DNA of 64,000 bases from Thermoplasmata archaeon (GCA_034667725.1 JAXDQS010000010.1:217937-281936), one strand, 5' to 3'; shown: positions 35,120-63,659, counted from the stretch's first letter. The notes: generated by a model not told the origin, from the sequence alone. A program made the numbers and translations.

Positions 35120-35177
35120 AGGCGGGGTCGCGCCCGGCCTCCGATTTAATCATTTGCGCTCTGGGCCAGTGTTGGAC

Positions 35178-43938: not shown

Positions 43939-43941
43939 GAG

Positions 43942-44598
43942 TTGCACCTCCGTCGCGCCGCCGTGGCGCGCTTTGCGCGGGGGTCCGCCCCCTGGCTGCT
44001 GGCCCCCGTGACCCTCGCGGTCGTGCTGGTGGCCTACGGTCTGCAGTCGAAGGACGTCTGGCCGTTCGTCGCCGCGGTCCTGCCGCTCTTGGTGTTCGCG
44101 TTCTTCATCGTGTTCTTCCGCGACCCCGACCGCCTGGCCTCGGAAGGCATCGCGAGCCCCGCCGACGGCACCGTGAGCTTCATCGACGAGGTGGACGACC
44201 CCGACCTCGGCCGGGTCGAGCGCTTCTCGATCTTCATGTCGCCTAAGGACGTCCACGTCAACCGCTACCCGGTGGACGGCACCGTCGTGTCGGTGCTGCA
44301 CAAGCCCGGCGGCCACGTGCCCGCCTTCAACAAGGAGGCCGAGCGCAACGAGCGGGTCGAGACCCTGCTGGCCACCGCCCACGGCCGCGTCAAGGTCATC
44401 CAGATCGCCGGCACCGTGGCCCGCCGCATCGTGCCCTACCACAAGGCCGGCGAGGCCGCCGTCAAGGGCGAGCGCTTCGGCCTCATCCGCCTCGGCTCGC
44501 GCTGCGACATCCTGGTCGCGCCCGGCACGGTGCGCTGGACCGTCCCGCCCGGCACCCAGGTCTACGCCGGCACCACCAGCCTGGGGGCGTTCAAGTGA
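43942..44598 (+). CDS. psd: Archaetidylserine (phosphatidylserine) decarboxylase proenzyme, short form
   Basis: 218 aa; N-terminal membrane helices, Psd-like core and a near-C-terminal GTTS motif consistent with the self-cleavage site of short PSDs. Confidence 0.65.
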   Translation: MHLRRAAVARFARGSAPWLLAPVTLAVVLVAYGLQSKDVWPFVAAVLPLLVFAFFIVFFRDPDRLASEGIASPADGTVSFIDEVDDPDLGRVERFSIFMSPKDVHVNRYPVDGTVVSVLHKPGGHVPAFNKEAERNERVETLLATAHGRVKVIQIAGTVARRIVPYHKAGEAAVKGERFGLIRLGSRCDILVAPGTVRWTVPPGTQVYAGTTSLGAFK

Positions 44599-45443
44599 CC
44601 CAGCCGCCGCCCGGCGCCCCTGGCGCCCCCGCCGCGGGCGACGGCGACACCTGGCGCGGCTACTTCCGCGCCGCCCTGCGCGACGAGTGGGACGGCCTCG
44701 ACCGCATCAACCGCGACCTCCGGCTGGCGGACCTGTTCACGCTCACCAACGCCCTCATGGGCCTCGCCGCGCTGCTGCTGATCGCCACCGCGCCCTACGA
44801 GGCCCGCTGGGACCGCATCCACCTCGCCATCGAGCTGGTCCTGGTCGGCGTCATCATGGACGGCGTCGACGGCGCCGTGTCCCGCATGGGCAAAGGCAAC
44901 GGCCCGCTCGGCGCCGTCCTCGACACGCTCGCCGACGCCTTGACCTTCGTCGCCACCAGCGCCGTCGTCACCTTCGTCTTCATCGACACCGCCCGCGGCG
45001 GCGAGACCGACCCGTTCCTCGACCGCTGGGGCAGCCTGCTCGCCCTCGGCTTCTACGTCGTGTGCGGCCTGCTGCGCCTGGCCCGCTTCGAGTCGCTCCG
45101 GGACACCGGCAAGCCCCGCGACTACTTCTCCGGCATCCCGACGCCCGCCGCCGCCCTCATGCTGCTGGCCATGGTGCTGGTCGAGTCGCCCGACTGGCTG
45201 CTGCTGTCGGCCGCGTTCGTGCTCGGCATCCTCATGACGACCCGCGCCCGCTACCCGAAGATCCGCGGCTGGATCGCCGTCGGCACCGTCGCCATCCTGC
45301 TCGCCATCCTCGTGAGCTTCAGCAACCCCGACTTCCAGGCGTGGCTCGCGCGCGGCCTCCTGGCCCTCATGGCGCTCTACGTCCTTGCCGGCCCCTTCGT
45401 CGTGCTCGCCCGCCACGGCGCCAACTTCCCGGGGTCCCGGTAG
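44595..45443 (+). CDS. pssA: CDP-alcohol phosphatidyltransferase (archaetidylserine synthase-like)
   Basis: DGxxAR...G...G...D...D signature in DGVDGAVSRMGKGNGPLGAVLDTLADALTF; multiple TM helices. Start overlaps the psd stop. Confidence 0.75.
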   Translation: MTQPPPGAPGAPAAGDGDTWRGYFRAALRDEWDGLDRINRDLRLADLFTLTNALMGLAALLLIATAPYEARWDRIHLAIELVLVGVIMDGVDGAVSRMGKGNGPLGAVLDTLADALTFVATSAVVTFVFIDTARGGETDPFLDRWGSLLALGFYVVCGLLRLARFESLRDTGKPRDYFSGIPTPAAALMLLAMVLVESPDWLLLSAAFVLGILMTTRARYPKIRGWIAVGTVAILLAILVSFSNPDFQAWLARGLLALMALYVLAGPFVVLARHGANFPGSR

Positions 45444-48955: not shown

Positions 48956-49579
48956 GTGGGCACCGAGGTCCAAGGCACCGTCACCGTCGGCGGCCAGAAG
49001 GTGCAGGTCAAGGCCGACTTCGCGAGCGACCACGTCACGTTCAGCGGCGGCCGGCGCGGCGAGGTGCCCTACAGCAAGATCCAGGTGGTGGGCACCGGGA
49101 AGGGCGTGCTGCGGCTGCGGGTCGACGACGCGCTCATGGAGTTCCCGCTCGGCGAGAAGGTCGACCGGATGGCGAACAAGATCCGCTCGCCGCCCACGCT
49201 GGTCGAGAAGCTCGGCGTCAAGCCAGGCATGAAGGTCGCGGGCCTCGACCTGCCGTCCGCCCTCGTGAAGCAGCTCAAGACGGCCGCGACGTTCTCCGAG
49301 CGCGAGCCGGCGCAGCCGGTGCAGATGATGTTCCTGGGCATCAAGGGCGTCGAGGGGTTGGAGCGGCTCGAAGGGCTTGTGCGCAGAATCCATCCGGACG
49401 GCGCCATCTGGGTGGTCTACCCGAAGGGCAAGCGCGACATCCGCGAGTCGGACGTGCTGGCGGCGGGGCGCGCCGTGGGCCTCAAGGACGTCAAGGTGGC
49501 GCGCATCTCGACCAACCACACGGCGCTCAAGTTCATGATCCCGGTCGCAGACCGCCAGGCGCCGCCCGCCGAGGCATGA
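48956..49579 (+). CDS. Hypothetical protein
   Basis: 207 aa, GTG start, coding-like composition. No family recognised. Confidence 0.4.
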   Translation: MGTEVQGTVTVGGQKVQVKADFASDHVTFSGGRRGEVPYSKIQVVGTGKGVLRLRVDDALMEFPLGEKVDRMANKIRSPPTLVEKLGVKPGMKVAGLDLPSALVKQLKTAATFSEREPAQPVQMMFLGIKGVEGLERLEGLVRRIHPDGAIWVVYPKGKRDIRESDVLAAGRAVGLKDVKVARISTNHTALKFMIPVADRQAPPAEA

Positions 49580-49866
49580 CGGTCCGCTGCGCCTGCCTGC
49601 ATTGGACCTCGCCGCTCGACCTCGTGTCGTTCCGGTTCGCCTGCTGCGCGCCGTGGTGGCCATGCGATTTGTGCCACCAGGAGGCCGCCGGCCATCCGGC
49701 CGAACCGTGGCCGAGCGCCCGGTTCCACGAGCCGAGCGTCTTGTGCGGCGCCTGCGGCAACGCCATGACGGCGCCGGCCTACGTCGCGTCGGGGTCGCGG
49801 TGCCCGTCGTGCGCCGCGCCGTTCAACCCGGGCTGCCGGCCGCATTGGCCGCGCTATTTTCAGTAG
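49576..49866 (+). CDS. Small Cys/His-rich protein, CHY zinc-finger-like
   Basis: 96 aa with ~12 Cys and several His in CxxC/CxH spacing; ATG overlaps the upstream stop. Confidence 0.4.
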   Translation: MTVRCACLHWTSPLDLVSFRFACCAPWWPCDLCHQEAAGHPAEPWPSARFHEPSVLCGACGNAMTAPAYVASGSRCPSCAAPFNPGCRPHWPRYFQ

Positions 49867-51011
49867 ACCTCGAACAGGATGGCGAAGCCTTGGCCGCCGC
49901 CGACGCACATGGTCTCGACGGCGAGGCCGCCCCCCTTCTTGCCGAGGGCGTCGAAGATGTGCGCCGCGATGCGCGCGCCGGAGGCGCCGAGGGGGTGCCC
50001 GAGCGCGATGGCGCCGCCGTCCGGGTTGACGATCTCCTCGGGGACTTGCAGTTCGCGGATGCAGGCGAGCACTTGGCTGGCGAACGCCTCGTTGATCTCG
50101 AAGTGGTCGAGGTCGGACACCTTGGTGTTGGTCTGGGCGAGGAGCTTGCGGACGGCGGGGACGGGGCCGATGCCCATGACCTCCGGCGCGACGCCGGCGA
50201 CCGCGGCGCCCAGGATGCGGCCCTTGGGTTCCAGGCTGTGCTGCTCGGCGAACTTGCTGCTCGTGATGAGGCTCATGGCGGCGCCGTCGCTCATCTGGCT
50301 GGCGTTGCCGGCGGTGACGACGCCGTCCGGGCGGAACGCGGGCTTCAGGGCCGCGGTGGCCTCGTAGGTCGAGCCGTAGCGGATGCCTTCGTCCTTGGAC
50401 ACCACCGTGCCGTTCACCGTGACGGGGACGATCTCGCCGTCGAACCGGCCCGCCTTCTGGGCGGCCTCGGCGCGGGTGTGGCTGCGCACGCCCCAGCGGT
50501 CCATGTCCTCGCGGCTGACCTTGTAGCGCGACGCGACCTCCTCCGCGGTGATGCCCATTGCGTTGTAGTAGGATTTGCGGACCTCGACCATGCGCGGGTT
50601 GAGGTAGAGCTCCGGGGTCATGCCGACCATCGGGATGAGGCTCATGGTCTCGACGCCGCCGGCGACGATGCAGTCGTTCCAGCCCGACTCGATGGTCGAG
50701 TGCGCGACGGCCATCGCGTAGGCGCTGCTGGAGCAGAAGCGGTTGATGGTCGCGGCGCCCGCCGTGTCCGGCAGGCCGCCGAGCAACGCGACTTGGCGGG
50801 CGACGTTGTAACCTTGCGGCCCCTCCGTCATGGCGCACCCGACCAAGACGTCCTCGACGGTGTTGGGGTCGAGCTTGGTGCGGCGCATCAGGCCCTCGAT
50901 GCACCAGGCGCCCAGGTCGTCGCTGCGGGTCTTGGCGAACGCGCCCTTGAACGCGCGTCCGATCGGCGTGCGGCAGGCGTCGATGACGACGGCGTCCGGC
51001 TTCACGGCCAT
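49860..51011 (-). CDS. Acetyl-CoA C-acetyltransferase (thiolase)
   Basis: Thiolase N-terminus VIDACRTPIGRAF, active-site Cys region NRFCSSSAYAM, C-terminal catalytic His/Cys (GHPLGASGARI, CVGGGQG). Start taken at the internal Met (MAVKPDAVV). Confidence 0.85.
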   Translation of the reverse strand: MAVKPDAVVIDACRTPIGRAFKGAFAKTRSDDLGAWCIEGLMRRTKLDPNTVEDVLVGCAMTEGPQGYNVARQVALLGGLPDTAGAATINRFCSSSAYAMAVAHSTIESGWNDCIVAGGVETMSLIPMVGMTPELYLNPRMVEVRKSYYNAMGITAEEVASRYKVSREDMDRWGVRSHTRAEAAQKAGRFDGEIVPVTVNGTVVSKDEGIRYGSTYEATAALKPAFRPDGVVTAGNASQMSDGAAMSLITSSKFAEQHSLEPKGRILGAAVAGVAPEVMGIGPVPAVRKLLAQTNTKVSDLDHFEINEAFASQVLACIRELQVPEEIVNPDGGAIALGHPLGASGARIAAHIFDALGKKGGGLAVETMCVGGGQGFAILFEVY

Positions 51012-51094
51012 CGCAACCCGGGCTTGCACATGGTCGCTTCGGCTGGGGAGAGAGCCTTCAACCCCCAAGCGGTTGGGCCGCCTGGAGCCGCCCG

Positions 51095-52084
51095 ATGGTG
51101 GACCTCAACGACCAGCGCGCGCCGGAGCTTACGGACATCCATGTCGGGCAGTTCCGGCTGAGCGATTCCGGCTCCGGATGGGTTCCACCGGGCGACGGCA
51201 GCAGCCCGTCCGACTGGACGCCGGGCGCCCAGGCCTTGTTCTACACGGGGGTCGTCGTCATGGTCGGCGGCTTTGGGGTCGGGCTGATGACGGAGGCGTT
51301 CGAGATGCTCTTGGTCGGCATGTTCGGCGGCCCGCTCCTCATCCTTGCCGGCGGCATCGTGAACAAGAACTCCACCCGGCCCCGCGCGCCCAAGCCCGCC
51401 CGCGCGGCCCGTCCCTCCCCGCCGCCTGGCCCGTCCCCCGAGGAGCGGGCGCGGCAGCGGCGCCGCGCGCGGGAGCGGCGGCAAGAGGCGCGGCGGGAGC
51501 GGCAGGCCAAGCGGGTCTTGCGGATGCAGCGCCAGACGCCGCCCGAGGCGATCCTTCGGCTGCACCGCGAACCCCGCCTGCCGCTCGTGCCCAAGGTGGC
51601 GCGCTACCGCGTCGCGATCAAGCCGTTGGGGTCGCTGCGCGCGATGCGGCAGGCCGCCGCGGCGTTGCGGCCGGAAGAAGACGCCCGCCTGCCGTTGGAA
51701 ACGCTCCGGGAAGAATCGGGCCGCACGTTCGTCAACCCGGGCGACGCCGACGTCCCCGTCATGGCCGTGCCCGACGCCGGCCTTGCCCCGTTGCCGCCCG
51801 CCGTCGCCAACGACCCGGTGTACCTCCACTTGGCGGAGAAGGACCGCGCCCTGCAAGCCGAGGCGGCCCGCCTGGACGCGGCGGTCGTCACGGCCCGTGC
51901 GCTGGCGGCGGCGCGGCCCGGCGGCCGGGCGGACGTCGAGCTGGCGCAGGCCAAGCAGGCGCGGAGCCAGGCCGAGTACCTGCACAAGGTCAACCGCAAG
52001 GAGCTGGAGGCGCGCCACGAAGTGCTGCGCAAGAGCTTCACCGCGAAGACCCTGCCGATCGACGGTCCCGGGACGCCGCGATGA
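51095..52084 (+). CDS. Hypothetical membrane-anchored protein with basic/coiled-coil region
   Basis: 329 aa; one TM region (FYTGVVVMVGGFGVGLMTEAFEMLLVGMFGGPLLILAGGIV) followed by an Arg-rich helical stretch. Confidence 0.4.
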   Translation: MVDLNDQRAPELTDIHVGQFRLSDSGSGWVPPGDGSSPSDWTPGAQALFYTGVVVMVGGFGVGLMTEAFEMLLVGMFGGPLLILAGGIVNKNSTRPRAPKPARAARPSPPPGPSPEERARQRRRARERRQEARRERQAKRVLRMQRQTPPEAILRLHREPRLPLVPKVARYRVAIKPLGSLRAMRQAAAALRPEEDARLPLETLREESGRTFVNPGDADVPVMAVPDAGLAPLPPAVANDPVYLHLAEKDRALQAEAARLDAAVVTARALAAARPGGRADVELAQAKQARSQAEYLHKVNRKELEARHEVLRKSFTAKTLPIDGPGTPR

Positions 52085-53025
52085 GCGCCGAGCCGCCGCC
52101 CCTGCCCCAGGTGCCCGCGACCTTGGCGGACCCGCCGCGCGCCGCCTTGGCCGCCCAGCGCGCCGGCTTGGCGCAAGAGTACCTCGCCCTCAACCGGCGG
52201 GTCGAGGCGTTCGTGTCCCGTTGCGCCGACGTCGAGGTGGGCTCGGCGCGGGACGTGGAGTGCACCGTGGAGGACGGCGCCATCGCGCAGGCGAAAGCCG
52301 GCGTCGCCGCCCGGGCGTGGGCCTTCGTCGCGACGCTGGACGCGGCCTTGCAAGCAGAGCGGGCCCGCCGGCGCCGGGCGTTGGAGGTCGAGATGGAAGG
52401 GCTGCGCACGAGGGGCCTGGCGACGCGCGCGGCGGAGTTCGAGGCCTGGGCCGAGCTGGCAAGCGACGCCAAGGACGACCTGGCCCGCGACGCGGTCGGC
52501 AAGGCCATCCGGTTGACCCTCGCGGCCGCGCAGGCTGGCGCCGCGGCGTTGCCGGCCTTCACGCCCGCGCAGGCGGCCCGCCTCGAGCTGCTTCTGATGG
52601 AGCACGAGGTCGCGGCGCCCGAGACCATCGCCCTCCTCAACGCGGTGGCGGACAACGCGAAGGGCCGGGAGGCGGTCGCGCGCGCCGCGCAGCAGCTTCT
52701 TCCCCAGATGCCCGCGGTGCTGGACAAGCTGCTGGCCAAGCCCTCCTCGCATCCGGGGCTCGACGCCTTGCTGGCGCTGGCCCAAGTGGTCGGCGGCATC
52801 TGGGGCGGCCCCGCCGCCGCCGTCGTGATGGTGGTCGGCCCGACGGTCGGCGCCTGGCTTCCGGCCGCCTACGTCCTGGCCGTGGACGCGCCCCGCCTGG
52901 CCGCACTTGAGAAGGCGACCGAGGCGGACCTGGGGCGGGTGCGCCGCCACGCGGCCCGCATCGAGGCGGAGGTCCACGGCCTGCGCGACGCCGAGGCCGC
53001 GCTGCACGCGTTGCCGGCGCGCTGA
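52081..53025 (+). CDS. Hypothetical helical protein with C-terminal hydrophobic segment
   Basis: ATG overlaps the upstream stop; Ala-rich helical sequence with a hydrophobic stretch near the C-terminus. Confidence 0.4.
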   Translation: MSAEPPPLPQVPATLADPPRAALAAQRAGLAQEYLALNRRVEAFVSRCADVEVGSARDVECTVEDGAIAQAKAGVAARAWAFVATLDAALQAERARRRRALEVEMEGLRTRGLATRAAEFEAWAELASDAKDDLARDAVGKAIRLTLAAAQAGAAALPAFTPAQAARLELLLMEHEVAAPETIALLNAVADNAKGREAVARAAQQLLPQMPAVLDKLLAKPSSHPGLDALLALAQVVGGIWGGPAAAVVMVVGPTVGAWLPAAYVLAVDAPRLAALEKATEADLGRVRRHAARIEAEVHGLRDAEAALHALPAR

Positions 53026-53027
53026 CG

Positions 53028-54362
53028 CTAGCCGGCCGGGCGCACCTGGTCGGGGTCGAGCGGCACGAAGACCACGGCGGGCCGGCCCCGCCCGCCCGTG
53101 GCGGCGGCCAGCAGCCCGGTCGGGACCACGCCGGCCTTGAGCGTGGCGGCGGGGTTCCGCACCGTGCGCTCCACGGTTCGGCGCAGGCGGGGCGACAGCG
53201 GCTCGTCCAGCAAGGGCGAATGGGATTGGTTGTGGCCGACGAAGGCGACGAACAGGCGCACGTCGCGGACGGGCCGGCCCCAGCGGTTGCGCACGCGGGC
53301 CGTGAGGGTGCCGTCCTGGAGGTCGCCGTCCAAGCGGAGGTCGAGGCGCAGCCGGCTTGCCGGCAGCAGGAAGCGGCCACCCAGCCAGCCGGCCAGCGCC
53401 GCCAGGGGCGCGAGGTTGGTGGCATCGGCCCAGTCGCCGCCTCCGACGACGAACAGCGAGCCGTGCAGGAACAGCTCGTCGGCCTGGATCGGGGCGCGCA
53501 ACAGCGCCGACACCGCGTCGGAGCCGAGCAGGATGCCGAGGAAGGCCGCGAGCATCGCGGCCAGCGCGGCGCCGAGGCCCTGCGAGCGGTTGCCGGTCCA
53601 GGCGCCGGCGGCGAACGCCGCCAGCAGCAAGGGCCGCGTGTCGGGATACGCCGACGGGGCCAGCAGCCACGCCCCAAGCGTGTACGCCCCGGCGACGGCC
53701 GCGACCCCAAGCAGCGGCCGGAGGAACGGCGCCCGGCTGCGCCCCGCCGGCCAAGCCAAGGCGAGCGCGGCGGCGGCCAGCACGATGGTGATGCCGCTGA
53801 CGGCGTAGCCGATGAGGCCGGGCAGCTCGTAGAACGGAGCCTGCCGGAGGACTGCGGCGCGCAGGTCGTCGGGGCTGCTGGCGAAGCCCGGCGTGAACAG
53901 GTCCGTGAGGGTGAACGCCAAGGTCGCGTTGGCGTGGGCGCGGACGCCGGCGGACGGGAAATCCGAGTTGTCCAGGACGAGGACATAGTCGCCGGCGGGG
54001 AGCATGGTGAAGCGCGCGTCCAGGCTGCGCACGTTCAGGTGGCCATCGACCCATGGGACGCTGGCGCCCGCGCTGAAGTCGGCGAACTGACCCGCGGTGA
54101 GCAAGAGCACGTCGATGGGGACGTCCGACACCAGCGTCAGGTCGAACCGCTCGATGCCCTCGGTCGCGTTGTAGTAGAAGTATTCGAAGAAGTTGTCCGG
54201 CAACACGTCGTCGTGCGGCCACTCATGCACCCCCGCCGCGTGCGCGGGCAGGGCGGCCAGCGGCAGCCCCGCAAGCGGCGCCAGCAGCACGGCGGCCGCG
54301 ATGGACGCGTGCCAGCGGCGGGGCTTCACGCCGGCCCATCCGCCCGCGGCGTCTTCAACCAT
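53028..54362 (-). CDS. Hypothetical membrane protein with N-terminal signal peptide
   Basis: Internal Met start (MVEDAAGG...); signal-like segment, soluble beta-rich domain, then several TM helices. Confidence 0.45.
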   Translation of the reverse strand: MVEDAAGGWAGVKPRRWHASIAAAVLLAPLAGLPLAALPAHAAGVHEWPHDDVLPDNFFEYFYYNATEGIERFDLTLVSDVPIDVLLLTAGQFADFSAGASVPWVDGHLNVRSLDARFTMLPAGDYVLVLDNSDFPSAGVRAHANATLAFTLTDLFTPGFASSPDDLRAAVLRQAPFYELPGLIGYAVSGITIVLAAAALALAWPAGRSRAPFLRPLLGVAAVAGAYTLGAWLLAPSAYPDTRPLLLAAFAAGAWTGNRSQGLGAALAAMLAAFLGILLGSDAVSALLRAPIQADELFLHGSLFVVGGGDWADATNLAPLAALAGWLGGRFLLPASRLRLDLRLDGDLQDGTLTARVRNRWGRPVRDVRLFVAFVGHNQSHSPLLDEPLSPRLRRTVERTVRNPAATLKAGVVPTGLLAAATGGRGRPAVVFVPLDPDQVRPAG

Positions 54363-55321
54363 TCCCGCGCAGCACGCACGCCTTGCACGCGGCGCCGCTG
54401 GTGGGCTCGCCGCATTCGGGGCAGGACCGCATCGTCTCGCGCGGCAGGGCGGCGGCAAGGATCGGCTTGAGGCGCTCCTGCGCCTTGACGAGGGCGTGCC
54501 TTGTGCCTGGCGTGCGCTCCTCCAACCCGGCCAGCACGTCGCGCAACGCGAACCGGCCGCTGCGCACGGCGTACGGACACTCGGCCTCGTGGTGCAGTGG
54601 CAGCCCGTGCAGCACCGCGTACAGCAGCACCTCCTTCTCCGGGATGGTCCGGAACGGCATCAGGCGCGGCACCAGCCCCTCCACCGGGTCGCGGGGGTCG
54701 TGCGGCGCCAGCCGGGCCAGCCGCTCCAGGTCGCCCTTGAGGTGGTTCATCAGGATGGTCTGCGCCTGGTCGTCGAGGTTGTGGCCCGTCACGATGGCCG
54801 TGCAGCCCAGGTCGCGGGCGAGGCGGTTCATCCCAAGCCGCCGGTACACGCCGCACGGCCCGCACGCCGGCCGCGGCACGCCCGCCTTGGCTTCGCCGGC
54901 GGGGCCATCGGTGCCGGCCGCGTAGCCGTCGATGTCGTAGCCGGCCAGGTCGCGGACCTTGACGACGTGCCACGGCACGTCGAGGTCGCGCGTCACCTGC
55001 CGGCAGATCTCCAGCGCGCCGTCGCGGTAATTGGCGATGCCCTCGTCCACCGACACGGCGGCCAATTCGATGCGCGGGTGGTCCTTGGTCAGATGGCGCA
55101 GGAAATGCAGCGCGCTCACCGAGTCCTTGCCGCCCGACAACGCGACGGCGATGCGGCCTTCGGGCAGGCGGCCCTGGCGGGACAACTCCAGCTTGGCGCG
55201 GCGGCCGAACCCCTCCAGGAAGTGCCGGTCGCACAACGACGTGCCGGCGTAGCGCAGGCGGACGACGGCGGGCCGGTCGCACTTGGCGCAGCCGGCCGGC
55301 GCCGGCGCCATCAAAGTTCCC
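54355..55321 (-). CDS. tRNA 2-thiolation PP-loop ATPase (TtuA/NcsA family)
   Basis: N-terminal zinc finger CAKCDRPAVV...CDRHF, PP-loop ALSGGKDS, C-terminal CPECGEP...CKAC. Confidence 0.65.
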
Positions 55322-55679
55322 GCGCCGTCTCGTGGGCGTGCGGCCGCGGCTTGGTCACGAGGTACAGCTCGCGCGCCACCAGGATCGCCATCACGTACGC
55401 CAAGATGGCGGCGCCGATGCGCAGGTAGATGGCCCAGGCTTGCGCCGACAGCGGCCAGCGGGCAAGCTGCTCCAGGTCGCCGGTCAGCCACGAAGCCGCC
55501 AGCACGCCGAGGTAGTACACGAAGATGGCCCACGCCATGAAGCGCAGGTTGCGCGCCGCGCGCCGCAGGTGCCCGAACGCCTCGCGCTGGAAGCTGCGCA
55601 CCTGCCGGTCGACGACGAACGCCAGCGCCAACGGCGCGGCGGCGACCACCGATGCCACCGCCGCCAGGACCAGCTGCAT
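55311..55679 (-). CDS. Hypothetical small membrane protein
   Basis: 122 aa with three hydrophobic helices; overlaps the ttuA-like start by 11 nt. Confidence 0.35.
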   Translation of the reverse strand: MQLVLAAVASVVAAAPLALAFVVDRQVRSFQREAFGHLRRAARNLRFMAWAIFVYYLGVLAASWLTGDLEQLARWPLSAQAWAIYLRIGAAILAYVMAILVARELYLVTKPRPHAHETAREL

Positions 55680-55681
55680 CC

Positions 55682-56671
55682 CTAGAGCAGGCCCGCCTTC
55701 TGCAGCGTCAGCAGGTCCTCGGTGGAGAGCTTCTCGCCCTTCTTGAAGCGCTGGAACACCATCTCCGCCGCCGCCTCGTTCTTGGCCTGGGTGGCCGCCG
55801 AGGGCTGCCCGCCGCCGTGCTGGCCGGTGGCGTCCTCGATCTCGTGGATGGCGTTGACGAACTGGATGTACGTCTTGTGAATCTCGTCCGCCTCCATCTT
55901 GGCGACGACGAACTTCTCCTGGAGCTTGTCCGCCTTCTTGCGGAGCTTGTCGGACTCCTTGTAGAGCTTGATCATGGCGTCGTGCTCCGACTGGGCCTTC
56001 TCCGCCATCTCGCCGACCTTGGCGTGCGCCTTCTCGGCCTTCTCCTTGAGCTCCTCCGCCTTCTCCAGGCTGGCCTTCAGCTCGGGGTCGGCGCGCAGCA
56101 GCTTCTCCTTCTCGCGGATGAGCTTGCCGATCTCCTTGAGGCGCTCCATCAGCGCCTTCTCCTTGGCGACCGTCAGCACCGAGGTCATCTGCTGGAACTC
56201 GAGCTGCTTGGCCTCCTTCTTGAGCTTCGCGACCGTCAGGGTGGCGTCGCCCTCGGGCATCCGGGTGCGCCGCAGCACCTCCGCGGACTTCTGCGCCTCG
56301 TCGGCCGCCCGGTTGGCCTCGTCCCGCAGCTCCTTCGAGCGCTTGACGCCCTCGTTCATCTCGTCGCGGCGCTTCTTGTGCTCGTTGGCCTGGTTCACGA
56401 GCCCGCGGACCTCTGCGTTGTAGGTGTCGCGCTCCTCGGCGTGCTTGCGCGCCTCGTCGTTGAGGCGGTCGCGCTCGCGCCGGAGCATGTTGGCGCGGCT
56501 CTGGAGGTCCTCCTTCTTCATGCCGGGCTTGGGCCCGTTGGGGTTCGGCTTGGGAGGCTCGGGGGTCGCCTCGACGGGGGCGGCCGCGGTCTCGGTCTCA
56601 GGGGCTTCGGGCGCGGGGGGCGACTCGGGCGCCGGCGGCGCCGCCGAGGCCACATCGGTGGTCTCACTCAT
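55682..56671 (-). CDS. Archaeal coiled-coil protein
   Basis: ~330 aa. Pro/Ala-rich N-terminus, long K/E/R-rich heptad region, conserved-looking C-terminus (VFQRFKKGEKLSTEDLLTLQKAGLL). The ORF-track frame extends antisense through the next gene and is a run-on. Confidence 0.55.
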   Translation of the reverse strand: MSETTDVASAAPPAPESPPAPEAPETETAAAPVEATPEPPKPNPNGPKPGMKKEDLQSRANMLRRERDRLNDEARKHAEERDTYNAEVRGLVNQANEHKKRRDEMNEGVKRSKELRDEANRAADEAQKSAEVLRRTRMPEGDATLTVAKLKKEAKQLEFQQMTSVLTVAKEKALMERLKEIGKLIREKEKLLRADPELKASLEKAEELKEKAEKAHAKVGEMAEKAQSEHDAMIKLYKESDKLRKKADKLQEKFVVAKMEADEIHKTYIQFVNAIHEIEDATGQHGGGQPSAATQAKNEAAAEMVFQRFKKGEKLSTEDLLTLQKAGLL

Positions 56672-56897: not shown

Positions 56898-57154
56898 TCC
56901 AGTCGGCGGTGCGCGACGGGCCAGCGGCTCCAGGCGACCTGCACGGCCTTCGGTCCAACCCCCCTCGTGCCGCGCCACCGTCTCCGCGTACAGCTCCAGC
57001 TGCCGCAACAGCCGCCCGGCCGTGCCATGCGACAGGCCGCCCCGTTCGCGCCCCGCCCCCCCAACCTCGCGCGTGGCCCCAGCAACGGGAACCCCAAGCC
57101 CAAGGCCGAAAGTCGTAGCCGGCCCGCTGTCCGCCCAGGACGCCGCCTGCAATG

Positions 57155-57162
57155 CTTTATTT
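57155..57162 (+). promoter_or_regulatory. TATA-like box (within hairpin CCTGCAAtgctttatTTGCAGG), leaderless spacing to the ATG at 57188
   Basis: ctttattt centred ~30 nt upstream of the ATG that begins the signal peptide. Confidence 0.35.
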
Positions 57163-57187
57163 GCAGGACAGGGTGGTGACGCCCAGA

Positions 57188-59221
57188 ATGACATCGTCTG
57201 CCGCCTGGGCCGCCTTCGGCGTCCTGGCCGCCCTTGCCGCCACCGGCATCGTCCTGTTGGCGACCCCCGCCGAGGCCGCGGTCATCCTGGAGCCGGCCGG
57301 CCCGCTGGAGCAAATCCACATCTCGCGCTCCAAGACGCTCGACTGCCAGGTGATGTACATCGGCACGGTGTACAGCTTCCCCGGCAGCGAGGCGGACGGC
57401 GAGTTCTGGGGCGTCGGCTCGGGCTCGTGCGGCACTTTCCTGCACGTGGTGGGCGACCAGACCTACGGCCCGCCGGTCGAAGGCTACGGCCCGCCCTACA
57501 TGGCGGGCGGCATCCCGCCCACGCCCTACACGCCCGTCAGCCAGGTCGGCCCCACCGGCACCGGCACCGTCGCGGACCCGTGGACCATCGACACGGTGGC
57601 GCGCGCCGTCGGCCCCGGCACCTTGGTCGAGCTGCACCAGGTGGACGAGTACGTCAAGGGCGACGAGTACTACACCACCACCGTCACCGTCAGCAACCTC
57701 GGCGCCGCCGCGGTGGACCTCATCCTCTACCGCGCCGGCGACTGCTACCTCACCACCACGAGCGCGGACCCCGACTCGGGCTACGGCTACCTCGACGTCG
57801 CCAACCACACCGTGGCCTGCACCGAGACGCCCGGCGGCGCCACCGGCCGCATCATCGAGTGGGTGCCCCTCACGCCCGGCGCGCACGCCGAGCACAACGA
57901 GTGGGACGACATCTGGATGCGCCCGATGTACGGCGACGAGATGGCCGACACCTGCCTGTGCGCCACGTTCCTCGACAACGGCGCCGGCCTGAGCTGGGCG
58001 TTCAGCCTCGGCGTGGGCCAGGACAAGACCTACGCCAACAACAACGTGTTCTCGCCGACCGGCGTCCCGCCGCCCCCCGACCCGGACGTCCCGCCCGTCG
58101 CCCGCGCCACCGCCGCCCCCGGCGAGCGCACCTGCTTCTCGGCGCCGTTCTTCTTCAGCGGCACGGCCTCCACCGACTCCGACGGCACCATCGTCTCCTA
58201 CCTGTGGGACTTCGGCGACGGCTCCCCCGTCGGCGCGGGCGCCACCACCAGCCACGACTACCCCGCCGCCGGCACCTACACCGTGCGCCTCACGGTGACC
58301 GACGACGACAAGCTTGCGCACACGGTCACCTTCACCATCACGAGCCTCGGCGACACCGACTGCCCGTTCACGCTGCGGGTGTTCGACTCGACGGTGCGCG
58401 AGGGCGCCCTGCTGCGCTTCTGCATCCAGGCCGAGGACCTCGACGGCGGCGCGTTCACCTACGCCGCGACCTACCCCGGCGGCCTGCCGGCCGGCCTCGA
58501 GTTCGATGTCGCCGGCTGCCTCGACTGGACCCCCGCCCAAGGCCAGGCCGGCAAGTACGACTGCCTCACCTTCACGGCCATGCAGGGCGGCGGCCCCACC
58601 GGGGCGCCGTTCCAGACCGCCACCGACTGCGCCACCATCACCGTCGTGGCCGTCCCGCCCGTCCAGGCGACCGACGACACCGACATGGACGGGGTCGCCG
58701 ACGAGGCCGACAACTGCCCGTCGCACGTCAACCGCGACCAGGCCGACAGCGACCGCGACGGCCCCGGCGACGCCTGCGACCCCGTGGCGCCGCAGGCCCG
58801 CGACCCCAGCGTCCCGACGCGCAACCTCGCCGGCCCCGGCGACCAGGACGGCGACCGCGTCGCCGACCGCCTCGACAACTGCCCGGAGCGCCCGAACGCC
58901 TCGCAGGACGACCGCGACCGCGACGGCCTCGGCGACGGCTGCGACCCCGACGAGGACGGCGACGGCATCATCGTCGGCGGCCCCTTCACCGACAACTGCC
59001 CGCTCGCGGCGAACCGCGACCAGGCCGACGCCGACCGCGACGGCGTCGGCGACGCCTGCGACCTGGCCGGCGTGACGGCCGCGTTCGTGCCCGCGCGCGG
59101 CAACGAGCCCGCCCTGCACTCCGCCCGCGCCGGCCCCTCCGTGTGGCCGTGGGTCGCGGCGGCGGCGCTGGGCGCGCTGGCCGCGGCGGCCTTGGTGGCG
59201 GTCGTGCGCCGGCGGGCCTAG
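57188..59221 (+). CDS. Surface protein with PKD domain, Ig-like domain, TSP3 repeats and C-terminal TM anchor (paralogue 2)
   Basis: Signal peptide MTSSAAWAAFGVLAALAATGIVLLATPAEA; PKD motif (YLWDFGDGSPVGAGATTSHDYPAAGTYTVRLTV); CPxT...RFC Ig-like region; DxDxDGxxDxxDNCP repeats; C-terminus GPSVWPWVAAAALGALAAAALVAVVRRRA. Confidence 0.6.
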   Translation: MTSSAAWAAFGVLAALAATGIVLLATPAEAAVILEPAGPLEQIHISRSKTLDCQVMYIGTVYSFPGSEADGEFWGVGSGSCGTFLHVVGDQTYGPPVEGYGPPYMAGGIPPTPYTPVSQVGPTGTGTVADPWTIDTVARAVGPGTLVELHQVDEYVKGDEYYTTTVTVSNLGAAAVDLILYRAGDCYLTTTSADPDSGYGYLDVANHTVACTETPGGATGRIIEWVPLTPGAHAEHNEWDDIWMRPMYGDEMADTCLCATFLDNGAGLSWAFSLGVGQDKTYANNNVFSPTGVPPPPDPDVPPVARATAAPGERTCFSAPFFFSGTASTDSDGTIVSYLWDFGDGSPVGAGATTSHDYPAAGTYTVRLTVTDDDKLAHTVTFTITSLGDTDCPFTLRVFDSTVREGALLRFCIQAEDLDGGAFTYAATYPGGLPAGLEFDVAGCLDWTPAQGQAGKYDCLTFTAMQGGGPTGAPFQTATDCATITVVAVPPVQATDDTDMDGVADEADNCPSHVNRDQADSDRDGPGDACDPVAPQARDPSVPTRNLAGPGDQDGDRVADRLDNCPERPNASQDDRDRDGLGDGCDPDEDGDGIIVGGPFTDNCPLAANRDQADADRDGVGDACDLAGVTAAFVPARGNEPALHSARAGPSVWPWVAAAALGALAAAALVAVVRRRA

Positions 59222-59274: not shown

Positions 59275-61125
59275 ATGCGCCTTGGCGCCATCCTTCCCGT
59301 CGCCCTCCTGGGCCTTGCCCTTCTCGCCGGCTGCACGCAGCCCGAAGCCGAGCCGCCCGTCGCCCAGGACGAGCCCCGCCTGGTGCCCGTCGCCGAGCGC
59401 AACGGCCTGCCGTACAACGTCACCGGCTACTACTCGCGCACCTTGGTGGACGGCGTCCTCGGGATGCTGCCCGTGGAGTCGGTGTTCGTCGACGTCGAGC
59501 TGCCCGCCACCGAGGGCGGCGCCGCCTTGATGGGCGGGGCCCGCGTCCACATGGGCCTGTGGCGCCCGAACGTGCCCGCCGGTACCAAGGTCCCCGTCAT
59601 CGCGGACATCGGCCCGTACTACGGCGACTCCGACGACCCCGCCGTGAGTCCGGCGCACCGCCTGGGCGGCTTCCTGATCGAGAACTTCGTCCCGCACGGC
59701 TACGCGGTGGCCCAAGTGTCGGTGTTCGGCTCCGGCCTCTCCAACCACTGCATGGACCTCATGGGCAACGCCGAGCAGCTCGGCATCGACGCCGCCGTCA
59801 CCTGGCTCGGCACCCAGGAGTGGTCCAACGGCAAGGTCGGCCTCGTCGGCCGCAGCTACGACGGCTCCACCCCATGGGAGGCCGCCACCTTCGGCAACGA
59901 GCACCTGGCCACCATCGTCCCGATCTCCGGCCTCATCGGCATGCACGACCTGATGTGGCGCAACGGCAGCGCCGAGACCCGCGGCCCCATCATGCACAAC
60001 GTCGTCTACGGCACCTTCGGCATCGACACGCCCGACCCCACCGGCCCCGAGGGCCCGCAGGTGGACGACGGCGAGATGGTGGAGAACCTCCAGACCCTCT
60101 GCCCCGACTACGTCGCCGGCCTGCCCGAGGGCGCTGGCGCCACCGTCACCGGCGACCAGGTCGTCCCCGCCGTCAACCCGTACTGGGCCGAGCGCAGCTT
60201 CCTGCCGCGCGCCCTTGCCAACTACAAGGGCTCGGTGTACCTCATCCACGGCCTGCAGGACTGGAACGTCGACCCGCACATGGCGTTCCCGACCTACCAG
60301 AAGCTAGAGGCCGCCGGCCTGGAGGTCAAGGGGCTGTTCGGCCAATGGAACCACATGTACCCCGACCGCCCCAGCGAGCACGTCAGCACCCCTGACGGCG
60401 AGGGCCACGAGGCCTACCCCGCCTCGGTGCGCTACGACTGGGCCCAGGACCTGCTGGAGTGGTTCGACCACTACCTCATGGGCGACCCGCTGGCGCCTGC
60501 CCTCCACGCCGAGGTGCAGGACAACCACGGCGCCTGGCGCGTCGAGGCCACCTACCCGCCCGCCGACGCCACCCCGCTGGCCATCGGCCTCGACGCCGCG
60601 ACCAGTGTTGCGCCCAATGGCGCCGCCGCCCCCGCCGGCCAGCCCATCGTCAGCCCGAACGACGGCATGGCCCTCGCGTTCGCGCCGCTTGCCGCCGACA
60701 CCCGCATCGCCGGCCTGCCCACCTTGCACGTCCAGGTCACACCCACCGGCCCCGGCGGCCAAATCTACGCCGAGCTGACCGACGTGGCGCCCGACGGCAA
60801 GACGCTGCGCCTCGGCCACGCCATCATGGATCTTCGGTTCGCCGCCGGCGGCACCGAGGCCCAGCCCGTCACCCCCGGCATGCCGCTCGTGGCCCGCATG
60901 GAGTTCGAGGCGTTCGACGCCGTCGTGCCCGCCGGCCACAGCCTCCGCCTGGAGCTGGCCGGCTTCGGCCGCGACTACCTGCCGAGCGCGGTGTCGGCGC
61001 CGGTGCTGGTGGACCTGTCGGCCGCCAGCGTGCTGACCCTGCCCACCATCGAGCGCGGCGCGGAGGCGTTCTTCACGCCGCCGGCGTGGTCGGGCGAGGC
61101 CGAGGCGACCGCGCAGGAACCGTAG
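59275..61125 (+). CDS. S15-family (CocE/NonD, X-Pro dipeptidyl-peptidase-like) hydrolase lipoprotein
   Basis: Lipobox LLAGC; GRSYDG nucleophile elbow (GxSYxG) in an alpha/beta-hydrolase context; C-terminal beta-sandwich region. Confidence 0.6.
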   Translation: MRLGAILPVALLGLALLAGCTQPEAEPPVAQDEPRLVPVAERNGLPYNVTGYYSRTLVDGVLGMLPVESVFVDVELPATEGGAALMGGARVHMGLWRPNVPAGTKVPVIADIGPYYGDSDDPAVSPAHRLGGFLIENFVPHGYAVAQVSVFGSGLSNHCMDLMGNAEQLGIDAAVTWLGTQEWSNGKVGLVGRSYDGSTPWEAATFGNEHLATIVPISGLIGMHDLMWRNGSAETRGPIMHNVVYGTFGIDTPDPTGPEGPQVDDGEMVENLQTLCPDYVAGLPEGAGATVTGDQVVPAVNPYWAERSFLPRALANYKGSVYLIHGLQDWNVDPHMAFPTYQKLEAAGLEVKGLFGQWNHMYPDRPSEHVSTPDGEGHEAYPASVRYDWAQDLLEWFDHYLMGDPLAPALHAEVQDNHGAWRVEATYPPADATPLAIGLDAATSVAPNGAAAPAGQPIVSPNDGMALAFAPLAADTRIAGLPTLHVQVTPTGPGGQIYAELTDVAPDGKTLRLGHAIMDLRFAAGGTEAQPVTPGMPLVARMEFEAFDAVVPAGHSLRLELAGFGRDYLPSAVSAPVLVDLSAASVLTLPTIERGAEAFFTPPAWSGEAEATAQEP

Positions 61126-61202
61126 CAAAAGGCAACGTTCTCGCAGGGTGCGCCGTCGCCTGCCTGCCAAGGTTCAAGAGCCGGAATCAAAATCCGGGGC
61201 TG

Positions 61203-63659
61203 TTGTCGCTTGGTCGGTGGCTGCTTGCCCTTGGGCTCGTGCTGCTCGGCGTCGCCGTGGCCGTCGAGGCGCGCGAGTACTGGACGGCCGACCTGCCGAC
61301 CTTCTGCGGCACCAAGGGCCCCACCATCGACCTCCTGAACCCGTCCCCCACGATCGCCACCGCCACCGTCACCACGGAAGGCATCTCGACGGTCTACGTG
61401 GTGCTGCCCGACTCGGCCTTCGTGATCAAGCCCGCGTCCCCGATCCCAGGCAGCGGCATCGGGGTCGCGGGCGTCTACCACATCGACACCGGGACGGGCC
61501 CTGTCGTGCCCCTGCTGGCCGGCGACGAGGTGCCGTCGTGCGGCGACGCCAACCGCATCCTGCCCACCGACGCCTTGGGCACCAACCACGTCCTCCACAC
61601 CTTCCCCGCGACCACCTACGCCACCGACCGCTCGTTCTTCACGGTCATCGCCACCGAGGACGACACCACCGTCGGCATCTTCCTGCAAGGCACCCCGACG
61701 ACGCCGGGCGGCGGCCTGCCTCCCATGGTCCCCGGCGTCAGCTACTCCTACGTCCTTGCCCGCGGCGTCGCGCTCACCGCAGTCTCCGGCCCCTCCACGG
61801 TGCTGGCGATGGCGGCGTTCGACGGCACCAACATCGTCTCCGACAAGCCCGTGAGCGTCTGGTCCGGCAACTTCCACAGCACCTACGGCATGGCCTCCGG
61901 CGGCGCGGACCAGATCTGGAACCAGCACCCGCCCACGCGGCTGTGGGGCACCGAGTACGTCGCCTGCTCCACCCTGGACCCGATGGTGCGCGCCAGCGGC
62001 ACCGAGCGGCTCCGGTTCGGCAACGCGTTCGTCCCGGCCACCGTCACCTTGGACCCGCCTCCCGTGGGCGCGGCAAGCGGCGTCTACGCCCTCGCCGCCA
62101 ACGCGTGGCTGGAGGTCAACGTCGACAGCAACACCCGCATCACCTCGACCGAGCCGATCCAGGCGCTGCACATCATGGTCCCCGACTCGCCGCCGCCGCT
62201 CGGCGACGTCGACATCCTGCCGCTGGCGCCGACCTCGCTCTGGACCGAGGAGCACCTGCTCTACGCCTCGCCCAACTACCCCGTGCGCCACCTCGCCATG
62301 GTGGTCCCGGCCGGCGGCGCCGCGGCGCTCGACGGCACCCTGGTCACGGGCGGCACCCCGGTCGGCGCCTCCGGCTACCGGTGCGCGCTCCAGCCGGTGG
62401 CGGCCGGCCTGCACCGCGTCACCGGCACCCAGCCGCTCGGCAACTGGATGATGGGCCAGACCCCGTTCTCCGGCTCCTACTGGTACGAGGACGCCGGCCT
62501 CCCCAAGGTGCTGCCGCCTCCGCCGCCGCCCCCGCCGCCCCGCCCGCCGGTGGCGGTGCCGGCCGTGGCCGGCGCGGGCACGAGCTGCGTGGACAGCGCC
62601 GTGCTGCTCACCGGCATCGCCTCGTTCGACCCCGACCTCGGCGGCACGGTCGTGGCGTGGGCGTGGGACTTCGGGGATGGCGTGAAGGGCGCCGGCAAGA
62701 CCGTCGCGCACGAGTACGCGCTCGCCGGCGATTACACCGTCACCCTCACCGTCACCGACAACGACGGCATGACGCACACGGCCACGCTCCTGGTCCACGT
62801 CGCCGTCGACGCCGACTGCCCCGCCACCCTCGTCACCGGCCATTCCTTGGTGCGCGAGCGCGACACCGTCCGGTTCTGTGTTGCCGCCAGCGACCCCGAC
62901 GGCGGCCCCTTCACCTTCACCCTCGCCTGGCCCGACGGCGAGCCCGCCGGCGTCACCTTCACGCCCGACGGCTGCCTCAGTTGGCGCACCTCCGTCGGCC
63001 AGGCCGGCTTCTACCCGTGCCTGCTGTTCACGGCCCTCGGACCCGGCGGCCCCGTGGCCGGCTGCGCCACCGTCGAGGTGCTGCCGTGGCCCCGCCCCGA
63101 TCCGACCCTCGACACCGACCTCGATGGCGTGGCCGACACTCAGGACAACTGTCCTTACGACGCCAACCGCGACCAGGCGGACGACGACCTCGACGGCCTC
63201 GGCGACCTGTGCGACCCGACGCCCCTGCGGCGCGACCTCGCCAATCCCGGTCCCGAACGGCTTGGCCGCGCCCGCGACGCCGACCGCGACGGCATCGCCG
63301 ACCCCGCCGACAACTGCCCGCTGGCGCCCAACACCTCGCAGGCCGACCGCGACCGCGACGGCGCCGGCGACGCCTGCGACCCGGACGCCGACGGCGACGG
63401 CGTCGCGACGGCGGGCGCGTTCCCCGACAACTGCCCCGACGCCGCCAACCCCGACCAGCGCGACGCCGACGCCAACGGCCACGGCGACGCCTGCGACGCC
63501 GCCGCGCCCGCCGCGCCGCGCGCCCTGGCGCGCGGCCGCGAGGCGGCGGCGTCGGTCGGCGGCGGCGCGCCGTGGGCCGTGGCGGCCGTCGGGCTGGGGG
63601 CGGCAGCGCCCCTGCTGGCGTGGGCCGTCGTGCGCCGCAAGTTCGCTGCCAAACCTTAA
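61203..63659 (+). CDS. Surface protein with PKD domain, Ig-like domain, TSP3 repeats and C-terminal TM anchor (paralogue 3)
   Basis: Probable TTG start giving a signal peptide (LSLGRWLLALGLVLLGVAVAVEA); PKD motif (AWAWDFGDGVKGAGKTVAHEYALAGDYTVTLTV); CPATL...RFC region; TSP3 repeats; C-terminus GAPWAVAAVGLGAAAPLLAWAVVRRKFAAKP. Confidence 0.55.
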   Translation: MSLGRWLLALGLVLLGVAVAVEAREYWTADLPTFCGTKGPTIDLLNPSPTIATATVTTEGISTVYVVLPDSAFVIKPASPIPGSGIGVAGVYHIDTGTGPVVPLLAGDEVPSCGDANRILPTDALGTNHVLHTFPATTYATDRSFFTVIATEDDTTVGIFLQGTPTTPGGGLPPMVPGVSYSYVLARGVALTAVSGPSTVLAMAAFDGTNIVSDKPVSVWSGNFHSTYGMASGGADQIWNQHPPTRLWGTEYVACSTLDPMVRASGTERLRFGNAFVPATVTLDPPPVGAASGVYALAANAWLEVNVDSNTRITSTEPIQALHIMVPDSPPPLGDVDILPLAPTSLWTEEHLLYASPNYPVRHLAMVVPAGGAAALDGTLVTGGTPVGASGYRCALQPVAAGLHRVTGTQPLGNWMMGQTPFSGSYWYEDAGLPKVLPPPPPPPPPRPPVAVPAVAGAGTSCVDSAVLLTGIASFDPDLGGTVVAWAWDFGDGVKGAGKTVAHEYALAGDYTVTLTVTDNDGMTHTATLLVHVAVDADCPATLVTGHSLVRERDTVRFCVAASDPDGGPFTFTLAWPDGEPAGVTFTPDGCLSWRTSVGQAGFYPCLLFTALGPGGPVAGCATVEVLPWPRPDPTLDTDLDGVADTQDNCPYDANRDQADDDLDGLGDLCDPTPLRRDLANPGPERLGRARDADRDGIADPADNCPLAPNTSQADRDRDGAGDACDPDADGDGVATAGAFPDNCPDAANPDQRDADANGHGDACDAAAPAAPRALARGREAAASVGGGAPWAVAAVGLGAAAPLLAWAVVRRKFAAKP

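Follow-up and report, generated by a model that had tools for sequence, protein, structure and literature searches.

Three adjacent membrane-protein genes of a Thermoplasmata archaeon probably belong to two unrelated, lineage-restricted transcription units at a synteny breakpoint

In a 64-kb stretch of DNA from the metagenome-assembled genome of a Thermoplasmata archaeon (GCA_034667725.1 JAXDQS010000010.1:217937-281936; the whole stretch analysed is hereafter called the window), having a guanine-cytosine (GC) content of 72%, three genes for putative membrane proteins (g1, g2 and g3) lie side by side at positions 51095-54362, between a thiolase gene and the gene of the tRNA 2-thiolation enzyme TtuA. 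The original prediction regarded them as a single uncharacterised, membrane-associated three-gene cluster. We favor, with a probability of about 0.6, a different reading, according to which the region is composed of two adjacent and unrelated transcription units of fast-evolving, lineage-restricted membrane-protein genes, located at a breakpoint of synteny: g1 and g2 on the plus strand, and g3 at the end of the operon of TtuA on the minus strand. The elements on which this reading depends are the following.

51095-52084, plus strand: g1, 329 amino acids (QOD77_1855); GC at the third codon position (GC3) 0.93, codon-usage log-odds +0.27
52081-52084, plus strand: ATGA overlap of g1 and g2, reading CGATGAGCG, pointing to translational coupling
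52081-53025, plus strand: g2, 314 amino acids (QOD77_1856); GC3 0.95, codon-usage log-odds +0.46
53028-54362, minus strand: g3, 444 amino acids (QOD77_1857); GC3 0.95, codon-usage log-odds +0.42, seven distant homologues by HMMER
54355-54362, minus strand: 8-nucleotide overlap of TtuA stop and g3 start, reading ATGGTTGA

Gene order and synteny

The geometry first described, with two overlapping plus-strand genes converging on a third and with a thiolase and a tRNA thiolation enzyme as neighbors, was recovered throughout: the open reading frames (ORFs) are present at the coordinates first reported, the g1 stop and the g2 start share the ATGA, identical in two other assemblies, the stop codons of g2 and g3 converge with 2 nucleotides between them (window 53023-53030), the thiolase gene diverges from g1, and TtuA overlaps the start of g3. 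The g1-g2 pair thus lies on the strand opposite to g3, divergent from the thiolase gene and convergent on g3. On the minus strand, the genes for a DUF7121 protein (55682-56671; 143 bits), a 122-amino-acid membrane protein (55311-55679), TtuA (54355-55311) and g3 follow one another with a 2-nucleotide gap, a 1-nucleotide overlap and the 8-nucleotide overlap, respectively. Because its ATG overlaps the TtuA stop, g3 appears to be the last gene of the TtuA operon, and the row is most simply read as a putative operon of DUF7121, small membrane protein, TtuA and g3. No terminator-like or structured RNA element was found at the g2/g3 junction (folding z-score +0.8); with the two stops only 2 nucleotides apart, the transcripts must therefore overlap at their 3' ends, and antisense interference is possible.

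The proposal of a three-gene cluster is not supported by this arrangement, with g3 on the opposite strand and apparently in the TtuA operon, nor by the comparison with relatives, in which the trio was not seen together. In the co-occurrence test named beforehand, tblastn and phmmer revealed no relative of g1 or g2 within the flanks (up to 8 kb) of any of the four full-length g3 homologues, and g1, g2 and g3, as well as thiolase, TrmY and SRP54, were missing (tblastn, phmmer and hidden Markov model, HMM, searches) from all 17 Thermoplasmatota loci retrieved by scanning the GTDB species genomes with TtuA (59-73% TtuA identity). In the genomes available for comparison, g3 is not accompanied by g1-g2. 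The g3 homologues were obtained with an exhaustive HMMER search of 1.84 billion representative proteins, which returned seven distant relatives (four full-length and three restricted to the N-domain) with 28-33% identity, the full-length ones being found in four different neighborhoods.

P0004, 425 amino acids, E 7e-24, full length: in a defence and toxin-antitoxin island
P0005, 510 amino acids, E 8e-19, full length: among genes without Pfam matches
P0006, 430 amino acids, E 4e-15, full length: between the genes of methionyl-tRNA synthetase (MetRS) and a methyltransferase
P0007, 352 amino acids, E 1e-10, full length: immediately downstream of a Peptidase_S15 gene
P0008, P0009 and P0010, 254, 288 and 215 amino acids, E 6e-5 to 5e-4: N-domain only

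A methyltransferase downstream of the g3 homologues was considered as a conserved partner and discarded, the two methyltransferases being only 27% identical over 128 amino acids and none being present in the window.

Upstream of TtuA, many of the 17 loci retain synteny with the window (DUF7121, small membrane protein and Peptidase_S15), and the operon of DUF7121, small membrane protein and TtuA is kept in part in seven of them (L001, L003, L004, L007, L012, L014 and L017). On the downstream side TtuA faces, in the relatives, a convergent gene of about 440 amino acids, which encodes FtsZ in four of the five loci scanned (L001 11496-12809, L003 11220-12734, L012 11159-12571 and L015 11136-12368, all on the minus strand) and has no Pfam match in the fifth (L002). 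Since g1-g3 are lacking on this side of the relatives, the three genes appear to be placed at a rearrangement breakpoint specific to the lineage under study. The FtsZ proteins of the relatives had no match among the window proteins, and the 64-kb window appears to be devoid of FtsZ; a rearrangement apparently split TtuA from FtsZ in this lineage, with g3, g2, g1 and the thiolase gene at the junction.

The g1-g2 pair

At 72% GC and with many spurious overlapping ORFs of 300-870 amino acids in the window, ORF length alone is weak evidence for a gene: the stop-codon probability is 0.016 per codon, and a 314-codon frame stays open by chance in about 0.7% of cases per frame start. Codon-position GC and codon usage, by comparison, single out the annotated frames and confirm that g1, g2 and g3 are real genes. 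GC at the first, second and third codon positions (GC1/GC2/GC3) was 0.76/0.53/0.93 in g1, 0.81/0.54/0.95 in g2 and 0.75/0.53/0.95 in g3, a pattern like that of the adjoining thiolase gene, and the codon-usage log-odds, trained on eight well-supported window genes, were positive in these frames and below zero in each gene's other five frames and in the long ORFs that compete with them. The three products are identical to NCBI/JGI gene calls, and the locus is 100% identical, g1/g2 junction included, in JGI metagenome 3300044738 and in the independent Logan assembly of SRR24887408. A sliding GC3 plot places the switch from the g1 to the g2 frame at about 52050-52090, in agreement with the ATGA overlap. 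The canonical overlap, and a junction that reads the same in the independent assembly, make a single frameshifted gene in place of g1 and g2 unlikely.

The description of the genes as uncharacterised holds as regards direct matches, as g1, g2 and g3 had no usable one in Pfam, NCBIfam, PADLOC or PHROGs, the hits to DACBindInsig (E 0.029) and mREase_II (E 0.011) being noise. In a word-index search of 5.8 billion proteins, capped at 8000 candidates per query, g1 and g2 retrieved only themselves; the same result for g3 was a false negative of this method, whose negatives are unreliable for Ala/Gly/Arg/Pro-rich queries from GC-rich genomes (for g3, self only vs. seven HMMER relatives). The exhaustive HMMER search had g3 as its query, and the term orphan as applied to g1 and g2 means that no relative was detectable in the word-index, tblastn, phmmer and jackhmmer searches. 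These revealed no relative of either protein in phage or plasmid records (tblastn), in viral contigs, in any of the fetched loci (tblastn, phmmer or jackhmmer) or elsewhere in the window, and g1 and g2 are not paralogous. In this sense g1-g2 are orphans with no functional lead.

Such a lack of homologues in the searches run would also be expected if g1 and g2 were frames without function, or very young ones that arose de novo or decay rapidly, gene-like only through GC-richness, an explanation that we consider unlikely. The fraction of Gly, Ala, Arg and Pro reaches 0.45-0.47 in the two proteins vs. 0.30-0.40 in conserved neighbors, an enrichment commonly seen in proteins under weak constraint when the genome is GC-rich; long Pro/Arg/Ala low-complexity stretches, an AlphaFold2 (AF2) model of g2 with low confidence outside one hairpin and the frequency of long ORFs at 72% GC go in the same direction. 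On the other hand, the two genes combine a strong GC1 > GC2 << GC3 pattern and log-odds positive only in the annotated frames with a canonical ATGA start/stop coupling, well-formed membrane hairpins in both products and, in g2, a confidently predicted helical hairpin of 90 residues. Their recognisable segments are as follows.

51233-51361, plus strand: g1 membrane hairpin (residues 47-89), two Gly-rich hydrophobic helices with the turn TEAFE; Kyte-Doolittle peaks 1.9 and 2.2
51437-51532, plus strand: g1 Arg-rich charged segment (residues 115-146), ERARQRRRARERRQEARRERQAKRVLRMQRQ, from sequence composition
52132-52410, plus strand: g2 N-terminal antiparallel helical hairpin (residues 18-110), from the AF2 model
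52750-52884, plus strand: g2 Gly/Pro-rich hydrophobic hairpin (residues 224-268), from hydropathy peaks of 1.6-1.75 and the hydrophobic moment; model confidence (predicted local distance difference test, pLDDT) about 30

The g1 protein (net charge +15) was described as basic and anchored by a transmembrane segment; it is indeed basic and membrane-anchored, and the anchor is a two-helix hairpin instead of a single helix. An acidic, Ser/Gly/Pro-rich N-tail, predicted to be cytoplasmic, precedes the hairpin, which is followed by a Pro/Arg linker, the Arg-rich charged segment, a Pro-rich middle part and a helical C-terminal region (residues 241-320). Judging from the strongly basic segment after the hairpin, both termini would be cytoplasmic, and the Arg-rich helix could have acidic lipids, nucleic acid or an acidic partner as its ligand. 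Among PDB sequences, g1 gave only low-complexity matches to CENP-A tails (E > 0.1).

As first proposed, g2 is Ala-rich (26% Ala) and predicted to be helical throughout; the hydrophobic segment assigned to its C-terminus is instead the Gly/Pro-rich hairpin, which ends about 45 residues before the C-terminus and is followed by an amphipathic helix. The single-sequence AF2 model is all-helical with a mean pLDDT of 58, its only confident part being the antiparallel hairpin formed by helices 18-48 and 56-110 (block-mean pLDDT about 74-93 over residues 21-100). No match was obtained among PDB sequences. An ESCRT-III, PspA or Vipp1 protein was considered and rejected: g2 had no Snf7 or PspA_IM30 Pfam match at E up to 0.1, the combination of an HMM match and a soluble alpha1-alpha5 core free of membrane segments was not found, and IpaB, ESAT-6, prefoldin, phasin and designed helical bundles score against g2 as well as ESCRT-III/PspA does. 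ESCRT-III proteins are without a membrane hairpin, whereas g2 has a hydrophobic one, and the likeness depends on a model of low confidence outside the N-terminal hairpin. A phasin, i.e., a protein of polyhydroxyalkanoate (PHA) granules, was considered for the thiolase next door, and was likewise discarded since a Phasin/Phasin_2 HMM match together with a nearby PHA synthase was not found.

The translational coupling of g1 and g2 through the ATGA, in a unit of their own on the plus strand (unit B), suggests a stoichiometric complex. The two proteins would meet in a ratio of about 1:1 at the cytoplasmic face of the membrane, each probably anchored by its Gly-rich hairpin with the bulk of the chain in the cytoplasm, and the complex may be built from the Arg-rich helix and the C-terminal helical region of g1 and the long helical hairpin of g2. 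On this basis we infer a lineage-specific, membrane-attached helical scaffold.

The g3 protein, DUF1614 and DUF1883

As originally predicted, g3 encodes a polytopic membrane protein with a signal peptide, to which five predicted membrane helices can be added. Its parts, from the N- to the C-terminus, are listed below.

54237-54362, minus strand: Sec-type signal peptide (residues 1-42), with basic n-region, hydrophobic core and A-H-A site, read from the sequence
53883-54230, minus strand: ectodomain (residues 45-160, about 115 amino acids), DUF1883/PPC/GOLD-like beta-sandwich with the motif Y-V-L-V-x-D-N...P-x-x-G
53370-53816, minus strand: membrane core (residues 183-331), five predicted helices, DUF1614-like
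53517-53519, minus strand: invariant Asp282, motif L-x-G-x-D near the end of membrane helix 4 (alignment A1, codon checked)
53424-53444, minus strand: invariant G307, G308 and D313, motif G-G-x-G/D-W-x-D-A at the start of membrane helix 5 (alignment A1)
53055-53345, minus strand: C-terminal beta domain (residues 340-436, about 100 amino acids), beta strands with pLDDT 50-60

The signal peptide has no Cys, hence no lipobox, and cleavage would take place at the A-H-A site. Positive-inside counting predicts an N-out, C-in topology with the C-terminal beta domain in the cytoplasm, a location with which the zinc ribbon found in its place in P0007 fits, and it would bring D282 and D313, on adjacent helices, to the outer face of the membrane. 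The ectodomain was modeled as a beta-sandwich (block-mean pLDDT about 70-87 over residues 51-130), and its extracellular location is supported by the PGF-CTERM surface anchor in which the N-domain relative P0010 ends. Invariant positions in alignment A1 comprise V129-x-D131-N132...P136...G139 in the ectodomain and R259, L278-x-G280-x-D282 and G307-G308...D313...P319 in the rest of the protein; the GGxG/DWxDA motif is also carried by a metagenome fragment (L094), and a metagenome scan with alignment A2 returned only N-domain relatives and one fragment. The profile of alignment A1 retrieved only a trivial S-layer motif from PDB sequences.

The statement that none of the three proteins matches a recognisable family stands for direct matches, and has to be amended for g3, which is linked through its homologues to DUF1614 (PF07758) and DUF1883 (PF08980). 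P0007 matches DUF1614 with 28.7 bits, above the cut-off of 23.9, while P0005 (19.9), P0006 (18.2) and P0004 (12.5 bits) remain below it over the same profile region (positions 54-170 of 171); g3 itself has no match to PF07758 even at E up to 5 and does not reach the gathering score of 23.9 bits, and no canonical DUF1614 gene was found in any of the fetched loci. DUF1614 (arCOG02159/COG4089) counts as an ancestral family of archaea, and the sole role suggested for it, a vague one in membrane remodeling, derives from its bacterial neighbors SpoIIP and YphB (PMC5898192); canonical members possess six membrane helices, with helices 2 and 3 joined by an all-beta loop of about 50 amino acids (Makarova et al. 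2015; PMC5898192). The core of the g3 family aligns to the C-terminal two thirds of the DUF1614 profile (Bacillus YphA-like), and in both cases an archaeal polytopic membrane protein carries a beta-rich extracytoplasmic part before its conserved helices (PMC5898192). However, g3 differs from canonical DUF1614 proteins in its signal peptide, its beta-sandwich of about 115 amino acids, its five helices in the place of six and its extra C-terminal beta domain. We therefore consider g3 a probable divergent member, or new domain architecture, of the old DUF1614 family, a match that gives it no mechanism.

The ectodomain shows, in its predicted form, the compact fold of DUF1883, PPC (pre-peptidase C-terminal) and p24 GOLD beta-sandwiches. 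P0009 matches DUF1883 with 32.4 bits (cut-off 26) and P0008 falls just below with 23.4 bits, their E-values to g3 in the whole library being 4e-4 and 6e-5, respectively; g3 itself has no match to PF08980 and does not reach the gathering score of 26 bits. The literature treats DUF1883 as a PPC-like domain for the binding of ligands (bioRxiv 10.1101/2025.08.20.671228). An assignment to a known housekeeping family, named beforehand as an outcome that would speak against the cluster, was not reached, DUF1614 and DUF1883 both being of unknown function.

The ectodomain of g3 may bind a ligand or protein of the cell surface and present it to the acidic pair D282/D313, which would constitute a catalytic or cation-binding site, so that g3 would be a membrane protein engaged in the processing or remodeling of the cell envelope. 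The remodeling part of this picture agrees with the only published guess for DUF1614. A more specific proposal is that g3, and DUF1614 proteins generally, are membrane-embedded di-aspartate, protease-like hydrolases that process surface proteins at the outer face of the membrane, which we regard as doubtful. The two invariant Asp, each within a Gly-rich motif of a helix (LxGxD and GGxGWxDA) and placed on the same face by topology reasoning, and a PPC-like ectodomain suited to ligand binding are consistent with it, and genes of lipobox-bearing S15 peptidases occur within 5 kb in three of the four contexts. Conserved acidic pairs, however, are also found in transporters and ion-binding sites, and the conserved surroundings of TtuA account for the S15 gene nearby in the window. 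One homologue weakly matches the membrane region of SpoIIGA, but the match (E 0.034) is not significant and falls in what we take to be the non-catalytic membrane part of that protein.

LspA, the signal peptidase of lipoproteins, carries two Asp near the outer face beside a Gly-rich, GGAxG-type motif. Both LspA (Peptidase_A8) and the GxGD proteases have, like g3, two Asp on adjacent membrane helices, but the order of motifs and the number of helices differ. A relationship by homology with LspA was rejected, since the alignment of A1 with E. coli LspA reached a probability of 0.6% in hhalign with only the GGA tripeptide aligned, and PF01252 was absent from the g3 family members at E up to 5. 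The GxGD proteases (presenilin/SPP, A22; prepilin/preflagellin peptidase, A24), recognised by the motif pair YD...GxGD, had no Pfam match either in the five members searched at E up to 5; g3 does contain a GGGD at residues 307-310, but D310 is not conserved in the family, in which the invariant Asp is D313. AliA and AliB, the known archaeal enzymes of lipoprotein biogenesis, belong to other arCOGs, 02177 and 02178 (PMC12462473).

Alternatives, neighborhood and significance

Several points weigh against the reading of two unrelated units and against the roles sketched for their products. The membership of g3 in the TtuA operon is deduced from gene spacing, and the relatives compared are no closer than about 73% TtuA identity and no closer than family level. 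The word-index method missed homologues of g3 that the exhaustive HMMER search found, and distant relatives of g1 and g2 may therefore exist. The link between g3 and DUF1614 is transitive, with only one of four full-length homologues above the curated cut-off. The model of g3 is poor in the membrane part (pLDDT 45-65), and the placement of both aspartates on the same face thus depends on positive-inside reasoning alone; more in general, the functional statements on the three proteins are all inferential.

That g1, g2 and g3 make up one functional membrane module, for example with g3 as a surface sensor or processing protein served by the cytoplasmic, membrane-anchored pair g1-g2, appears distinctly unlikely. 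The three genes are directly adjacent, with the g2 and g3 stops 2 nucleotides apart, they share a similar Gly/Ala/Arg/Pro-rich composition, they are all lineage-restricted and they occur together at one synteny break; moreover the membrane association first claimed for the trio is borne out, all three proteins having hydrophobic membrane segments. Nevertheless, convergent genes cannot share a transcript, g3 overlaps TtuA on the opposite strand, and none of its four full-length homologues is accompanied by a g1 or g2 relative within flanks of up to 8 kb. An origin of g1-g2, possibly with g3, as cargo or remnant of an integrated mobile element such as a virus or plasmid is highly unlikely, since the position of orphans exactly at the break of synteny and the defence and toxin-antitoxin island around P0004 are outweighed by the lack of tRNA genes in the 64-kb window, of an integrase among the genes tabulated for 42081-63025 (the remaining parts of the window were not scanned for one) and of matches in phage, plasmid and viral collections, PHROGs and PADLOC, and by a GC3 and codon usage like those of host genes between housekeeping flanks.

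Other features of the surroundings deserve mention. The thiolase (49860-51014, minus strand) is of bacterial type (Thiolase_N and Thiolase_C, 238 and 145 bits); a zf-CHY gene of 96 amino acids (49576-49866, plus strand) converges on it with a 7-nucleotide overlap of the 3' ends, and the divergent spacer between thiolase and g1 is 80 bp long, GC-rich and without a recognisable AT-rich box. In the TtuA operon, the DUF7121 protein is a coiled-coil protein, rich in Lys and Glu in a 72% GC genome, and the 122-amino-acid membrane protein is holin-X-like; TtuA, a tRNA 2-thiolation enzyme, is linked to these two. The island of P0004 (L081 917-7876 and 10369-12072) comprises CTD7 and MC3 domain genes, a Lamassu LmuB-like SMC ATPase, an HNH nuclease, an AAA-like gene of 412 amino acids and three toxin-antitoxin pairs (MazE/PIN, ParE/YafQ). 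The Peptidase_S15 genes (X-Pro dipeptidyl-peptidase type) lie within about 5 kb of g3-family genes in three of four contexts, directly upstream in L085, and their lipobox-type N-termini predict archaeal lipoproteins.

Window 59275-61125, plus strand: Peptidase_S15, N-terminus with LLAGC
L085 6068-7831: Peptidase_S15, N-terminus with LVGC
L081 13011-14819: Peptidase_S15, N-terminus with LAAGC

Lipoprotein-like N-termini are found as well in the window protein at 42817-43938 (LLLAGC) and in that at L085 5332-5955 (AAGC). Several secreted proteins of very large size, one of them of about 2526 amino acids, contain PKD, He_PIG and thrombospondin type-3 repeats and are encoded around the region at 34935-42806, 57152-59221 and about 61200-63659 (all plus strand), suggesting a neighborhood rich in cell-surface functions. 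Upstream of SRP54 and TrmY, a gene pair at 43939-45443 (plus strand) encodes a phosphatidylserine decarboxylase and a CDP-alcohol phosphatidyltransferase, for the synthesis of archaetidylserine/ethanolamine lipid head groups.

Under the reading of two separate units, it would be wrong to treat g1, g2 and g3 as a single system, and the overall value of the finding is modest. The g1-g2 pair exemplifies lineage-restricted, GC-driven, low-complexity membrane proteins and bears on estimates of the 'dark' archaeal proteome, to which a single occurrence adds little. The boldest interpretation would make DUF1614 proteins enzymes of a new class, embedded in the membrane and equipped with an acidic dyad (D282/D313) at its outer face, to which the g3 group adds a fused PPC/GOLD-like substrate-binding ectodomain, and would reveal a role of the family in the processing of archaeal surface proteins (e.g., lipobox or other anchored proteins, such as the neighboring S15 peptidases), and g1-g2 a new pair of membrane-attached helical scaffolds, and we grant it only a very slight chance. 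If our favored interpretation of g3 is right, the two invariant aspartates and a domain fusion pointing to an extracytoplasmic substrate would offer a testable handle on DUF1614 (arCOG02159).

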